Source: an uncultured delta proteobacterium (GTDB lineage Bacteria; Desulfobacterota; RBG-13-43-22). Taken from it: 64,000 bases of DNA. A program made the position numbers and the translations under genes. A model generated the notes under the pieces. The model was not told the DNA's origin, did no database searches, and worked only from the letters and a program-made list of their open reading frames with translations. Numbering within the stretch: position 1 is the first letter of the stretch; each line of letters starts with the position of its first letter. Of this stretch, positions 13,242-17,866 are shown one piece after another. Where the stretch lies: contig CAWBOS010000013.1 of assembly GCA_963790475.1 (NCBI GenBank), positions 256,001 to 320,000 on the forward strand. The letters are read 5' to 3'.

Positions 13242-14936
13242 TTACGCCTTATAGGCCCCCAGATTGGCCAGGGCCACGCTGCCCGGACTGATGGTCGTTG
13301 GATCGGTCATGACATTAATGCAGGTCGTCTTCCCGGAAGCAAAGGCCTCTTCCAAAGCCGGACGAATATCCTCCGGATGTTCAACCAGCATTCCTTTACC
13401 GCCCAGGTCCTCCACCAACTTATGATAATTGACCCGGCCGATATAGGTGCCATCAGGAATAGCATGCCCTATTTTCAATTCCTGGCTGTGCCGGATCATG
13501 CCCCAGCCCAGATCATTACTGATCACCGCCACAATAGGCAGGTTCTTGCGTATGGCCGTTTCAAACTCCATAAAATTGAAGCCCACCGATCCATCACCGA
13601 TAATCAGGCAGACCCTTTTCCGGGGATAAAGATATTGGGCGGTGTTGGCATAAGGAATTCCAACTCCCAGGCAGCCATATAGGCCGGAATCGAGATAGTG
13701 GCCGGACTGCCGGACCGTCCGGGTCATGCCCATCCAGATCTGGGTATCACCGCCGTCGGCTACGACAATATCATCTTCCCGGTCCATAAAGTGATTGATC
13801 TCGGCCGCCAGACGTAAAGGGTGGATGGGGGTTTCGGTGCTTTCCCACTGGGTTTTGGCCTCGGCTTTTCCGTCTTGTCCGGCCTTTCTTAAGGTAGAGA
13901 CCCAATCTTCAAATCTTTTTTGAAGGCCCGAATTAAGATTTTTTCCCTCGATGAGGCGGTTGCAGACAGCCAGCAAGCCTTGAATATCGCTGACTACCGA
14001 TAGATCCACCGAACGATTTCTTCCGATTTCTTCGGCTTCAATATCCACCTGGATAATTTTGGCTTCCTTGTTAAAAAGCTCCCCGAAGATATAAAAGAGG
14101 CTCATGCGCGCCCCCAGAAACAGGACCAGATCGGCACTCATATTGGCAAAAAGGGCCGCACCGGGGCGAACGGCCAGAGAGGATTCAAAACATAGCGGAT
14201 GGGTGTCGGGAATAGTCCCCCGGCCGAGAGAGGAGGTGAAGGCCGGTATTCCGGTCTTTTCCACAAATTCAATCAGCTCCTGCCCGGCCCCGGAATACCA
14301 GGTCCCGCTGCCGGCAATGACGATAGGCTGGGAGGACTGTTGAAGCAACTCGATGATTTTCTGGCACTGGTCCAGGTCCACCGGATGAGATTGGATCACA
14401 CTGTAGGTCCTTTTAACGGCTGTCGGATCAGTCTGGGCGTTAAGCACATCCACGGGCAGTTCCAAATAGACCGGTCCCGGGCGACCGCTGGCGGCAATAC
14501 GATAGGCCAGGTCAATAAACTCCGGGATCCGCTCCGGCTTATGACAAACCAGGGCCTTCTTGACCATGGGCTCGATTACCGGGGCCTGACGCATGTCCTG
14601 CAAATCCAGCTTTTCGATGCATTCCACGCCCACGCACCCTGAAATAAGGACCAGCGGTGAATTGGCCAACCGGGCATTGGCCACAGCCGACAGGGCATTG
14701 GTGAAACCCGGCCCGGCTGTGACCATGGCCGTTCCCGGCTTTCGCCTCATTCTCCCCCAGGCCTCGGCCATAAAAACCGCGCCCTGCTCGTGGCGGGTAT
14801 CAAACAGCTTAATGGGTGAGTCCTCCAGGTATTGGTAGATCGGGGTGATATGTCCGCCGCTTAAGGTAAAAATCGTTTCCACGCCTTGCCGAATCAAGGC
14901 TTCGGCCGTGAGTTGTCCTCCGGAAATTTTTCCCAT
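13242..14936 (-). CDS. Thiamine pyrophosphate-dependent enzyme (IlvB-like / 2-hydroxyacyl-CoA lyase-like)
   Basis: LSGGHI, TRHEQ, TAGPG, GDGSVGF...ND TPP motif. Confidence 0.88.
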   Translation of the reverse strand: MGKISGGQLTAEALIRQGVETIFTLSGGHITPIYQYLEDSPIKLFDTRHEQGAVFMAEAWGRMRRKPGTAMVTAGPGFTNALSAVANARLANSPLVLISGCVGVECIEKLDLQDMRQAPVIEPMVKKALVCHKPERIPEFIDLAYRIAASGRPGPVYLELPVDVLNAQTDPTAVKRTYSVIQSHPVDLDQCQKIIELLQQSSQPIVIAGSGTWYSGAGQELIEFVEKTGIPAFTSSLGRGTIPDTHPLCFESSLAVRPGAALFANMSADLVLFLGARMSLFYIFGELFNKEAKIIQVDIEAEEIGRNRSVDLSVVSDIQGLLAVCNRLIEGKNLNSGLQKRFEDWVSTLRKAGQDGKAEAKTQWESTETPIHPLRLAAEINHFMDREDDIVVADGGDTQIWMGMTRTVRQSGHYLDSGLYGCLGVGIPYANTAQYLYPRKRVCLIIGDGSVGFNFMEFETAIRKNLPIVAVISNDLGWGMIRHSQELKIGHAIPDGTYIGRVNYHKLVEDLGGKGMLVEHPEDIRPALEEAFASGKTTCINVMTDPTTISPGSVALANLGAYKA

Positions 14937-15000
14937 ATTTTTTACTTTTCAGATCAATATCGAAGATTCGTAACAGTTTAGCTTCTTGAAATAACTGTTT

Positions 15001-15178
15001 CCACCGCAAAGGCGCAAAGGGCGCAAAGAAGAAGATATATTATTGATTGTCCCGCGGGACAATCAATAACCCCCGCTACCCTGCGGGTAATTGTTTGGCC
15101 GGAGGCCAGAGCTGTTTTATTCAATCCCGCCTCTCACGGGATTGAACAATAATGATTCACTCTGCGTTCTTTGCGTCT
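15001..15178. repeat. ~190 bp MITE/REP-like element family A, left part (right terminus at 16777-16787 beyond the IS110)
   Basis: CACCGCAAAG terminus; internal hairpins TTATTGATTGTCCC-GC-GGGACAATCAATAA and TTCAATCCC...GGGATTGAA; reverse-complement match to 18873 and 62611 copies. Confidence 0.88.
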
Positions 15179-15234
15179 GGTTTATTGTTGTCAAGAGTTT
15201 TTTAAATATTATTAAACAAACTGGTAACTATCTT

Positions 15235-15395
15235 AGAGTGACACCTTGCCCAACTCTGGTAATTTGAGAGTCTCAACAGAGCTCTAACCTTGCTTTATTG
15301 GGGTTAAGGTGCAAGCGGAGAGTTATTTAAGCTCTGCGAGAAGGTCGACTTAGTCGCCTTAGATGCCGCAAACGATAATCTCTCCGCTTACACGC
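15235..15395 (-). ncRNA. Predicted IS110 bridge RNA with target- and donor-binding loops
   Basis: Two stem/internal-loop/stem modules; loops contain TTTGCGGC and CGCAGAG (target) and AGCAAG and ACCAG (donor). Confidence 0.7.
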
Positions 15396-15404
15396 TAAGA
15401 AGGT

Positions 15405-16664
15405 CTAAGCAGCCAGTTTTAACGTTGCTCCTTTTGAATAATTTTCCATATATTCGTTATGATCACGCACCAAGGCAAAAATAACACCGAGAAGCTTCCG
15501 GGCAATGGCTACCAGGGCCTTGATCTTGGGCATTCCTTGATCCAGATGCCTTTGATAGGCCGTATGCATCACTCCCCCTTTTCGAACCGTATTGATAGCG
15601 GCAAAAAAGAGGATTTTCCTAAGAAGCGACCGGCCTCTTTTGGATATATGACGATTCCCTTGGTGCCTTCCAGAACTGATTTCAAAGAGGTTCAGTCCGG
15701 CCAACTTCAGGACTTCAGCCAGCGTATGAAATTTACGAAAATCCCCGACTTCTCCAATCAGTCCGGCGGTGGTAACCTCTCCTATCCCTTTCAAGGACAG
15801 AATCGAATGACTATAGGGGATCTCGGGAAGAAGGGCCGCCATCTCCTGTTCCGCCTTCTCAATAAACTGGTCAGAAGATTCAATCTCAGAAAGAAGTTCT
15901 CGTATCTCAAAAAGAATCGCCTTGCGGCCTTCTTGAAGACCTACGGAATGGCCAGCGGCCGCATAAAGGGCCGGGGCTCGCTCTTTATCCAGCTTCCCTC
16001 GGCTAACCCGTCTCAGCGTGGCCCTCAAGGTCCCAAGACCACATTGGATAATATCTTCCGGGCACGGATAATGCCGCAACAGATATTGGGCACTGCGGGT
16101 TTTAATATTCTTCATCACTTGCAGAAACTCGGGGAAGACAATAAAGACCAAATCCTGAATCTGGTTCAAAAGGCCCGTTCGTCTTCGTATGGCTCTCTCC
16201 CTGGCATGGGTCAGTCGGCGAAGTTCAGCTGCCGCGCCTTCGGGAATGACCACGGTAAGGGCATGACCCAGCTCAATAATATCCGCAATGACTTTGGGAT
16301 CTTTCCTATCCGTCTTATTGGGCGAGTTACCCTGGACTTCCTTCAACTTCTTCGTATGCATAGGATTAACCTGAACCAGTGTCACCGGCCGTTTCATCAG
16401 AAAATGTTGCAAGGGTTCTCCATAAGACCCGGTGGATTCAAAACCAACCACGATTTCTTCCAAGTGATTGGCCTCTTTGGCCTCAACCATCCGATTCCAA
16501 AATTTCGTAAATCCTTGATCATTATTGAAAAACTCAAAAGGTTTGATTTCCGTCCGGTCTGGACAGCGGCCATATCCCATATTGGTCGTTTTGCCTATGT
16601 CCACGGTACCGATAAGGGTTTTTTCATTGACCTTCTTAAGTTTTTTTGTTTCAATCTTATTCAT
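15405..16664 (-). CDS. IS110 family recombinase/transposase
   Basis: DEDD motifs VDIGK, FESTGSY, KTDRKD; C-terminal GIGEVT, ISSG, SKRG, ALVAIARKL. Confidence 0.95.
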   Translation of the reverse strand: MNKIETKKLKKVNEKTLIGTVDIGKTTNMGYGRCPDRTEIKPFEFFNNDQGFTKFWNRMVEAKEANHLEEIVVGFESTGSYGEPLQHFLMKRPVTLVQVNPMHTKKLKEVQGNSPNKTDRKDPKVIADIIELGHALTVVIPEGAAAELRRLTHARERAIRRRTGLLNQIQDLVFIVFPEFLQVMKNIKTRSAQYLLRHYPCPEDIIQCGLGTLRATLRRVSRGKLDKERAPALYAAAGHSVGLQEGRKAILFEIRELLSEIESSDQFIEKAEQEMAALLPEIPYSHSILSLKGIGEVTTAGLIGEVGDFRKFHTLAEVLKLAGLNLFEISSGRHQGNRHISKRGRSLLRKILFFAAINTVRKGGVMHTAYQRHLDQGMPKIKALVAIARKLLGVIFALVRDHNEYMENYSKGATLKLAA

Positions 16665-16896
16665 GGCTATACTCCTTTCCTTGGTTTGGGTTTAACCAAC
16701 TTGCAAATTGGACCTCAAATCAAGAAAGAGTATAGCCTTTTTTGTACGGCTTAACTACTTTCTAAAATATAGCAAGCTTTGCGGTGAGCAAAAACTCTTT
16801 TTCAAAAACTTAAAGTGTTACAAAAGCTCAAAGAAGATTTTGGCCCGGCAAAAGGTGTTTGGTTCTTCCTTGAACCTTGAACCTCGCACCGTTTAT

Positions 16897-17733
16897 CTAT
16901 ATTTCCATTAACTGTCCCCCGGTCACATTGACGGCCTGACCGGTCATGTAGGAAGAGGCCTCGGAGGCCAAAAAAGCCACCAGATTGGCCACTTCATCTG
17001 TGGCACCGATACGGCCCAAGGGAATCATCCGGCACATTTCCTGTTCCCGTTCTTCCGGCGTGGACCCGAAAAACCGGGCCTCCAGTTCAAATCGCCATTT
17101 TTCCAGATCAGTTTGAATTTGTCCCGGACAAACGGCATTGACCCGGATCCCGGACCCGGCCAGTTCTCTGGCCATGACCTTGGTCAGCATTATCACACCG
17201 GCCTTGGCTACGGCATAGGCGCCATTAAACAGAGGGGGGACTTTGCCGGCCCGGGAAGCGGTGTTGATGATGCTCCCCGATTTTCCGGTCATTAGAGGCA
17301 GGACGGCCCGGGAGACCCGAAAAACCCCATGGAGATTGACATCAATCGTTCTCATCCAGGCCGATTCTTCATATTGCTGAACCGTGTTGGGGACGCCGAA
17401 GGATGCCCCGGCATTATTACAGAGGATATCGATCCGGTCGAACCGGTCTTTGATCCTCTCCACCATCTCCAAAATGGAATGGTTGTCGATGACGTTTACC
17501 GGCACGGCCAGGGTCTGAACGGCGAACCGGTTATTCAGTTCCCGGGCCAGTCCCTCCATTTCCTCCAGCGTTCCGGTGCCGACTTCGCTGGATTCTTGTT
17601 GAATATTTCCCAGATCAGCCAGAATCACCTGGGTTCCCAATGACGCCAATTTTCGTCCTATAGCAAACCCGATCCCGGACCGCTTCCCGGCGCCGGACAC
17701 CAGGGCTGTTTTTCCTGCCAAATCCTGCAACAT
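16897..17733 (-). CDS. SDR family oxidoreductase
   Basis: VSGAGKRSGIG, NNAG, YAVAK; AGGAGG RBS before ATG 17733. Confidence 0.9.
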   Translation of the reverse strand: MLQDLAGKTALVSGAGKRSGIGFAIGRKLASLGTQVILADLGNIQQESSEVGTGTLEEMEGLARELNNRFAVQTLAVPVNVIDNHSILEMVERIKDRFDRIDILCNNAGASFGVPNTVQQYEESAWMRTIDVNLHGVFRVSRAVLPLMTGKSGSIINTASRAGKVPPLFNGAYAVAKAGVIMLTKVMARELAGSGIRVNAVCPGQIQTDLEKWRFELEARFFGSTPEEREQEMCRMIPLGRIGATDEVANLVAFLASEASSYMTGQAVNVTGGQLMEI

Positions 17734-17866
17734 GGAAATCCTCCTGTTGTGGGGGATGGGTTCAATTCGAAGCCTATCCTCTAACCCAAAATAATTCGAT
17801 AAGTGGATAATAGTCAATTCAATTTTATTAAGTATCTTTCTTTTGAGAAATTAGTCGATATTCTCC

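Follow-up and report, generated by a model that had tools for sequence, protein, structure and literature searches.

The stretch analyzed here, referred to as the window, comprises 64,000 nucleotides of contig CAWBOS010000013.1 (assembly GCA_963790475.1, positions 256,001 to 320,000, forward strand) from an uncultured delta proteobacterium of the Desulfobacterota. It carries an insertion sequence (IS) of the IS110 family whose recombinase gene, on the minus strand, is followed by a 226-nt tail. An earlier reading of the letters alone (the original prediction) had proposed that this tail encodes a bridge RNA with legible guides directed against a host repeat of the miniature inverted-repeat transposable element (MITE) type. 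Our comparison of the element with its genomic copies, with empty sites and with its relatives indicates that it is very probably an autonomous IS that moves by bridge-RNA-guided serine/DEDD site-specific recombination. The main features of the locus, in window coordinates, are as follows.

15179-16776, minus strand: IS110-family insertion sequence, 1598 bp between two copies of a CT core, with 10 genomic copies and empty sites
15177-15178, plus strand: core dinucleotide CT, copy at the right donor (RD) end; the second copy is at 16777-16778
15405-16664, minus strand: recombinase of 419 aa with DEDD RuvC-like and Tnp domains (Pfam, NCBIfam)
15309-15393, minus strand: target-binding loop module, with a 14-bp outer stem (15380-15393 / 15309-15322), a guide-bearing internal loop and an inner hairpin (15341-15360)
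15242-15311, minus strand: donor-binding loop module, with a stem (15300-15311 / 15242-15253) and an inner hairpin (15267-15285)
15002-15178, plus strand: host MITE-like repeat that the IS splits; the final 8 nt of the repeat, TTGCGGTG, follow at 16779-16786

The element, its copies and its target repeat

We set the ends of the element independently of the original prediction, from 10 full copies in the host genome (20 contigs, 6.34 Mb) and from empty sites in the same genome, which join the flanks exactly. On the plus strand of the window this copy reads TTTGCGT-CT-[GGTTTATT ... TATAGCAAG]-CT-TTGCGG, and all 10 copies share the layout of left target (LT), CT, [GGTTTATT ... TATAGCAAG], CT and right target (RT). 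Their ends are identical, and an alignment of the ten copies with 30-nt flanks has one variable column inside the element, a single-nucleotide polymorphism. CT is the sole sequence common to both junctions in all 10 copies, with no longer duplication, and the element is therefore 1598 bp plus one core. In transposase orientation the left end spans 112 nt (16665-16776) and the right end 226 nt (15179-15404), and a circle formed from them would read TAGCAAG-CT-GGTTT at its junction. Since copies and empty sites fix the ends, the junction TAGCAAG-CT-GGT and the target TTTGCG(N)-CT-(T/C)TGCG that the original prediction had drawn are correct. Its remark that obvious subterminal inverted repeats are missing also holds: exact inverted repeats between the terminal 60 nt do not exceed 5 nt, a length reached by 500 of 500 shuffles. 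Only AATA and TATT flank the 13-bp donor TAGCAAG-CT-GGTT, a pattern retained in most relatives. A search of the genome for orphan copies of the RNA returned none, all 10 matches falling within full copies. Outside the full copies there are two extra 12-nt matches to the RD end and one extra 11-nt match to the left donor (LD) end, which is near chance for a 6.3-Mb genome. The element is an intact, well-preserved and, as its sequence predicts, recently active IS110-family IS.

The recombinase combines an N-terminal DEDD RuvC-like domain (DEDD_Tnp_IS110, PF01548, E = 2.5e-24) with a C-terminal Tnp domain (Transposase_20, PF02371, E = 5.7e-20), and it passes the NCBIfam model NF033542, 'IS110 family RNA-guided transposase', its score of 216 bits exceeding the cut-off of 140. 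When five relatives are combined in a profile, this aligns in two blocks with the solved IS621 recombinase (E = 1.4e-11), and E76, D119/D122 and S331-G332 coincide there with the E, D..D and catalytic S-G motifs of IS621; S331-G332 is invariant in all five aligned relatives, and D22 is assigned to the DEDD set by motif only. Between the two blocks lie about 74 extra residues, the region in which Siddiquee 2024 (PMC11187229) places length variation of IS110-type transposases; here and below, statements taken from papers given by PubMed Central (PMC) number hold for the sections of those papers drawn on. Relatives in the PDB are partial matches only. Among plasmid-borne homologues the nearest has 35.6% identity; named IS110-like elements align over most of the length, many enterobacterial matches extend only over residues ~290-410, and, because the identity of the named IS behind the latter is unconfirmed, we draw no group assignment from the plasmid search. 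Metagenomes hold at least 3954 homologues at E <= 1e-20 among 8000 scored candidates, annotated merely as 'transposase' or 'IS110 family transposase'. An antisense open frame of 431 aa (15459-16754, plus strand) spans nearly the whole recombinase gene.

A search with the joined flanks recovered the interrupted repeat in 66, 126 and 148 nhmmer matches over three rounds, halves included. Whole units are non-coding, measure 183-194 bp (~187 bp) and contain internal hairpins, and they end in ~30-bp terminal inverted repeats, each built of three CTYTGCG heptads and finishing ...GCGGTG. A strict pattern yields 19 intact pairs and ~50 ends of each polarity. In size, copy number and terminal inverted repeats the repeat is thus the MITE target that had been proposed, but two further marks of a MITE are missing: no target-site duplication is evident in the 19 listed copies, and no autonomous partner was found in the genome, where end pairs 0.45-6 kb apart are only repeat-plus-IS units or neighboring repeats. 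For these two reasons we keep to the more cautious 'MITE-like'.

Within one terminal inverted repeat, the IS separates the outermost heptad from the second. Looking beyond this copy to the other insertions, on which the claim of a repeat target hinged, we found the same motif at 10 of 10 insertions, nine of them within a detected repeat. The remaining copy (C6, about 16.1 kb) lies at a matching motif where no repeat was detected, so it is the motif that is recognized and not the repeat as such. Empty matches to TTTGCG-N-CT-N-TGCG all lie in the repeat (38 of 38).

Near identity of the copies and the presence of nine of them in one repeat family might also arise if duplication or homologous recombination had spread whole MITE-plus-IS units, the shared flanks then reflecting common descent. 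The repeat flanks, however, vary between copies within 10-30 nt of the junction and are unrelated beyond the repeat, C6 has no detected repeat around it, and relatives in other genomes show the same one-site behavior at other targets, so that we consider spread as units very improbable and take the copies as separate insertions at one motif.

Structure and guides of the predicted RNA

All strings and coordinates that the original prediction had given for the RNA are present on the minus strand of the window. The reverse complement of 15179-15404, which it had put forward for folding, folds at -67.9 kcal/mol against -47 +/- 4.3 for shuffled sequences (z = -4.9; none of 200 as good). In the outer stem of the target-binding module, GTGTAAGCGGAGAG (15380-15393) pairs with CTCTCCGCTTGCAC (15309-15322). 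The guides read as follows, each followed by the sequence that it matches where one is assigned.

15365-15372, minus strand: left target guide UUUGCGG with a following C, which pairs with the core C (in DNA letters TTTGCGGC); match to the left target TTTGCGT-C
15330-15338, minus strand: right target guide CGCAG-AG (15332-15338), with cognate matches, and the target-loop handshake CU (15330-15331)
15289-15294, minus strand: left donor guide AGCAAG; match to the left donor TAGCAAG at 16770-16776
15254-15264, minus strand: right donor guide AA[UU]ACC-AG (15256-15264; ACCAG at 15256-15260) and the donor-loop handshake AG (15254-15255)

The left target guide has the sense of the left target on the plus strand of the window, and so it would pair with the opposite strand. 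The right donor guide, read as AA-UU-ACCAG against the donor CT-GGTTT, is split by two U. At the occupied site we find the one mismatch (G against T next to the core, in the left target) and the one wobble (rG:dT, with the right guide) that had been reported.

Five genomes of the family to which this one belongs supplied relatives (with matches in 7 of 41 genomes, the window's own included), and others came from 80 further loci in named metagenome-assembled genomes (MAGs) of Desulfobacterota, Nitrospirota, Planctomycetota and others. Nine of 84 loci (L063, L068, L071, L095, L102, L106, L107, L114 and L125) gave no RNA region. Of 65 unique regions 55 were aligned; the 10 omitted were mis-registered (L085, L104) or near-duplicates (L061, L065, L080, L083, L093, L119, L135, L034). 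Both flanks could be read in 37 of the 55 aligned elements, and the guide and handshake counts cover these 37, the other 18 standing outside them.

The consensus of the 55 non-identical regions has 37 base pairs in six helices, arranged as two modules, in each of which an outer stem leads through an internal loop to an inner hairpin. Compensatory changes on both sides occur in 28 of the 37 pairs, including 12 of the 13 in helix 1, and 97.4% of cells are paired. None of 500 shuffles reaches any of the five measures, and partners slid out of register give at most 47.5% paired cells and at most 13 compensatory pairs. Across the relatives the helices are structurally conserved and the loop arms are the variable parts.

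Guide-target covariation, which the original prediction had named as a check, is present in the relatives. The left target arm matches its own left half-site at 6.70 of 8 positions on average against 4.11 for non-cognate pairs, and the right arm matches its own right half-site at 6.22 of 7 against 3.99; none of 2000 permuted pairings reaches either cognate mean, with or without wobble pairs. The same behavior is visible in three close relatives, in which the element ends and the arms of loop 2 are kept while the arms of loop 1 and the flanks differ.

G003, 82% protein identity: left guide UUGAAUC-CU, right guide GAAAA-AG, site TTGAATC-CT-TTTTC (4 copies, 3 distinct sites)
G020, 64% protein identity: left guide CCCUCCC-CU, right guide UUUGU-AG, site CCCTCCC-CT-ACGAA (7 copies)
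G013, 53% protein identity: left guide UUCUUC-C, right guide GUUAC-AG, site T(T/A)CTTC-CT-GTAA (5 copies)

The donor is nearly invariant in the subfamily, and there is therefore less to covary on that side. The left donor guide matches its own element end in 48 of 49 relatives, two of them through a compensatory A-to-C change (LD ...GCACG with guide AGCACG). The right donor guide matches its own end in all 37 parsed elements, and two further unparsed ones read ACCAG by eye; RD ...AAACA with ACAAG (3 elements) and RD ...AAACT with ACUAG (1 element) are further compensatory changes, independent of the one on the left.

One might ask whether the 3' region is rather a structured 3' untranslated region, a terminator or a DNA-level site for the recombinase, its likeness to target and ends being coincidental or due to captured repeat DNA. 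Rfam 15 has no model for it: a search of 14800-17000 on both strands at E <= 1 left the RNA uncovered, the sole match being a chance hit to MIR529 outside it. Matches of 6-8 nt do arise by chance, and full right-guide matches including wobble occur in 109 of 1314 non-cognate pairs. Such a region, however, would not be expected to change its guide segments with the targets of relatives while its helices persist through compensatory changes, nor should changes in the donor guides track changes in the element ends; a captured copy, moreover, would hardly carry its two target matches on opposite strands, split by a hairpin. We therefore give a non-RNA origin very little credence. Helices kept by compensation, together with guides that follow flanks and ends from relative to relative, support the bridge-RNA reading, and with the motif shared by 10 of 10 insertions they bear out the two-loop assignment and the CT core of the original prediction. 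The anatomy, copy number and site specificity of the element, like the covariation of its helices and guides, are direct observations on these genomes.

Targets in the relatives invite some further remarks. Very similar heptad-type sites are occupied by L075, L090, L113, L115, L127, L128 and L070, from Planctomycetota, Nitrospirota and other Desulfobacterota; the L075 site reads CTTTGCGC-CT-TTGCGGTG. A formal heptad pattern counted 8 of 37 and was too strict, missing L086 and L088, which are alike by eye, and it is given as a side note only. Either repeat ends of this kind are spread widely across phyla or the guides are inherited. In G020 all seven insertions (L033, L040, L044, L048, L051, L054, L056) lie at the foot of a GGGAGGG...CCCTCCC hairpin, and those in G003 (L032, L039, L043, L047) lie within runs of TTGAAYC-like units, so that the targets of these relatives also look like host repeats. 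In the window, just upstream of the IS, tandem GGTTCAAGGTTCAAGG at 16868-16883 (minus strand) resembles the TTGAAYC-CT repeats targeted by the G003, L116 and L120 relatives.

Position 7 and the proposed handshake guides

The mismatch next to the core is real, and it is not an accident of this copy: the seventh left position is T in 10 of 10 occupied sites, though the left guide UUUGCGG-C has G there. At this position the 51 empty TGCG-N-CT-N-TGCG sites have G (24 sites), C (13), A (8) or T (6), so that T7 is found in 10 of 10 occupied and 6 of 51 empty sites (Fisher's exact p = 9e-8). None of the 24 G7 sites carries an insertion despite matching the left guide. Sites that match the left guide perfectly are therefore avoided.

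In IS621, each right guide is followed on its 3' side by a handshake dinucleotide, which pairs with positions 7 and 6 of the other DNA once the top strands have been exchanged; if it pairs with its cognate DNA earlier, the complex is locked (PMC11208160, PMC11208158, PMC13626964). The corresponding bases of our element would behave as follows.

Target-loop handshake CU: pairs with donor positions 7 and 6 (G, A)
Donor-loop handshake AG: its A (15255) pairs with target T7

Counted in this way, the Watson-Crick handshake pairs of the element rise from 0 before exchange to 3 afterwards. With G7 in the target, the target-loop C would instead be paired already before exchange, which would lock the complex, and the A:T pair that should follow exchange would be missing. 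In the 37 relatives the mean number of Watson-Crick handshake pairs rises from 0.19 before to 2.41 after exchange, and 36 of 37 elements have more pairs after exchange than before it. Complementarity between the first donor-loop handshake base and target position 7 holds in 33 of 37 elements, a count that none of 10000 permutations reaches, and in 4 of the 6 elements in which this base is not C. Sequence comparison and the published IS621 biochemistry together suggest a model in which the base adjacent to the core follows the handshake guide rather than the left guide, and the systematic T7 mismatch would be due to handshake logic of the IS621 type.

A second explanation keeps the bridge RNA and lets the left guide itself read T7 in a bulged register, in which UUUGCG pairs, GCA bulges out and UCU pairs with T-CT. 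The 5' arm (15361-15372) then matches TTTGCG-T-CT at 9 of 9 positions, and at 12 nt this arm is longer than the 11 nt of most relatives. This register, however, leaves no linker before the conserved AAGG stem, and every relative has such a linker. Two relatives that share the CAUCU insertion of this arm, L090 and L112 (left flank only), match un-bulged, L090 at 8 of 8 positions. The handshake rule predicts T7 without an extra assumption and also explains the 24 empty G7 sites, and we thus think a bulged register unlikely and retain the handshake as the probable cause of the choice of T7.

Proposed mechanism and comparison with known systems

Taken together, our results are consistent with a model that borrows RNA production and binding, chemistry, the circle and the role of the handshake from IS621 and the seekRNA elements. 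A ~150-nt RNA of two modules, each with stem, internal loop and hairpin, would be encoded 3' of the recombinase gene. In the target-binding loop, the 5' arm would pair with one strand of TTTGCG(T)-C and the 3' arm with the other strand of CT-(C/T)TGCG, and the donor-binding loop would read the joined ends TAGCAAG-CT-GGTTT likewise. Excision would give a circle whose junction creates a TTGACA-17-TATATT promoter that drives the recombinase and then the downstream RNA. The recombinase-RNA complex would synapse circle and target, strands would be exchanged at the CT core, and the handshake guides CU and AG would pair with positions 7 and 6 of the other partner after top-strand exchange. With no handshake pairs before exchange and three after it, insertion should be directional and T7 targets should be selected; and as the preferred site lies in a terminal inverted repeat of the ~187-bp repeat, insertions would land in intergenic repeats.

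The predicted promoter has its two hexamers at opposite ends of the integrated element.

15189-15194, minus strand: -35 hexamer TTGACA of the predicted circle-only promoter; the -10 hexamer TATATT lies at 16766-16771, with a spacer of 10 + 2 + 5 = 17 nt across the junction

This TTGACA/TATATT arrangement recurs in relatives, and junction promoters have been described for the family (Siddiquee 2024, PMC11187229; PMC12288879). The predicted -10 hexamer overlaps the short inverted repeat and the first two left-donor bases, and conservation at 16766-16771 therefore has at least two possible causes. The integrated copy may be expressed by read-through from the upstream same-strand gene (16897-17817), as has been reported for IS621 (PMC11208160, PMC11208158, PMC13626964).

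Of 20 sequencing runs, 18 are DNA metagenomes and two are RNA libraries with small shares; four (X19, X20, X2 and X3) were compared with the window, and the parts that they leave uncovered, such as the coding sequence in X19, carry no evidential weight. One RNA-library contig skips 15179-16783 and represents the uninterrupted repeat of some organism at 85% likeness. In X19, a single contig joins the RD end (15169-15382) to repeat 15057-15175 in the opposite orientation, which suggests a near-identical element in the other repeat end in another sample.

Several points weigh against this account. The recombinase is remote from IS621 and its alignment is partial (E = 1.4e-11), so the transfer of mechanism from IS621 is an extrapolation. 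The relatives share phylogeny, and the permutation counts therefore overstate independence. In the left target guide, G faces the invariant T7 and the base available to the core T is A, which makes left complementarity imperfect at 2 of 9 positions. The sole mismatch among the 49 left donor guides is in L087 (Ca. Scalindua MAG), whose AGCACG faces its own left end CTTGC...; it may be a decaying copy, or its RNA may serve another copy. At position 7, L075 and L091 have a donor-loop A against a C7 target, L069 is unpaired (G against A7) and L067 forms only a wobble, and L104/L107, outside the alignment, have handshakes that appear mismatched by eye. A promoter scan of 15000-16950 in the integrated copy gave 3 promoter-like sites against 2.3 expected, none of them placed for the recombinase or the RNA. 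The sole cover of 15169-15382 in an RNA library is the above X19 contig, a 479-nt Logan contig with 3 differences from one metatranscriptome, in which DNA carry-over is possible, and no circle-junction contig was seen in X19, X20, X2 or X3.

These findings bear on a class of enzymes, the bridge recombinases, that is under development for programmable DNA insertion and whose mechanism is known mostly from IS621 and a few relatives. The locus adds a remote subfamily that is abundant in bacteria of sediment, soil and groundwater, and the genome sequences directly reveal its target, its donor and all six guide segments, with dozens of natural reprogrammings among the relatives. Selection at position 7 within a genome bears on guide design through the handshake and the 'locked' configurations. 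For annotation, the 226-nt tail of such 'IS110 family transposase' genes is predicted to be a functional RNA gene, and the repeat family is a landing pad.

Insertion into repeated sequences has parallels elsewhere. IS4321/IS5075 reportedly insert into the terminal inverted repeats of other transposons. Like them and like the REP-targeting ISPpu9 and ISPpu10, our element uses one position in a repeated host or transposon sequence; unlike them, it has as its target the terminal inverted repeat of a ~187-bp non-coding repeat. Both ends of ISPpu9, read in transposase orientation, likewise carry AG, or CT on the opposite strand (PMC12288879). Its downstream Ssr9 RNA is dispensable for transposition and its circles form no junction promoter according to the same sections, whereas the downstream RNA described here carries guides and a junction promoter is predicted.

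In its guide grammar the element follows IS621 of E. coli (Durrant 2024, PMC11208160; Hiraizumi 2024, PMC11208158; PMC13626964). Both have a CT core and a two-loop RNA with handshake dinucleotides 3' of both right guides; in both the left half-site is read on one strand by the 5' arm and the right half-site on the opposite strand by the 3' arm, the core included, and the right donor guide is split by two U (A157-U158 and flipped U159-U160 in IS621). Both gain handshake pairs on exchange, tolerate a wobble to the commonest target, target a host intergenic repeat and have a circle-junction promoter, which in our element is predicted. The DEDD residues and the Ser-Gly motif align with the recombinase, as described above. 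Unlike in IS621, the RNA lies 3' of the gene and not 5', and the strand that reads CT is not the one that carries gene and RNA. Its recombinase has 419 aa against the 328-residue IS621 chain in the structure entry, the ~74 residues between the blocks being extra; no 5' stem-loop is evident in our RNA, the left guides pair with one core base only, and sequence similarity is partial.

With the IS1111-group seekRNA elements ISEc11, ISKpn4 and ISPa11 (PMC11187229) our element shares an RNA downstream of the transposase gene, a (predicted) junction promoter, a guide complementary to the transposase-sense strand placed 5' of the guide for the other strand, and site-specific insertion without duplication. 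As in that group, the longer non-coding end carrying the RNA lies downstream (226 against 112 nt); the bridge RNAs of the IS1111 group are located in the right end (Durrant 2024, PMC11208160). It differs from the group in having no subterminal inverted repeats of 7-17 bp and a protein of 419 rather than 330-350 aa, which is set apart by length only. From the IS110 group in the sense of Durrant 2024 it differs in that its RNA is not in a long upstream left end, the left end here being 112 nt; it resembles that group in having only a short inverted repeat flanking the programmable donor (of the ATA/TAT type, 2-3 bp, there; AATA/TATT here). In its 419-aa protein and its lack of long subterminal repeats the element is of the IS110 type.

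The RNA 3' of a 419-aa recombinase and the reversed strand, which the original prediction had singled out, are both present, but their novelty has not stood, as they are largely in print: a 3' non-coding region has been noted in some IS110-type elements, and elements with a 3' RNA show the strand matches in reverse order (Siddiquee 2024, PMC11187229). With the AG ends of ISPpu9 also published, the layout is not new in principle. Among the papers listed by our literature searches, none dissects the RNA of such a 3'-RNA IS110-type element and none deals with a bridge RNA of the IS110 family directed at a MITE end; Durrant Supplementary Table 5, Siddiquee Supplementary Fig. 2 and the 'green' group of Fig. 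1b may list the subfamily.

A wider joint reading, which we put forward tentatively and hold to be somewhat doubtful, is that of a widespread, uncharacterized third layout of bridge-RNA IS, with handshake guides that set the core-adjacent base and a long co-residence of IS and MITE superfamily. Such a layout would combine a long IS110-type recombinase and the lack of long subterminal repeats with the RNA and strand logic of the IS1111 type and the full guide grammar of IS621. The hint of co-residence comes from relatives in other phyla, which target the same heptad-type terminal repeat, as if this IS lineage had long lived alongside one MITE superfamily.

In summary, the element belongs to an uncharacterized IS110 subfamily and is a clean example of a mechanism described in 2024. 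What our study would add to the known systems is a systematic mismatch at T7 that handshake logic would explain, a logic that holds in 36 of 37 relatives.

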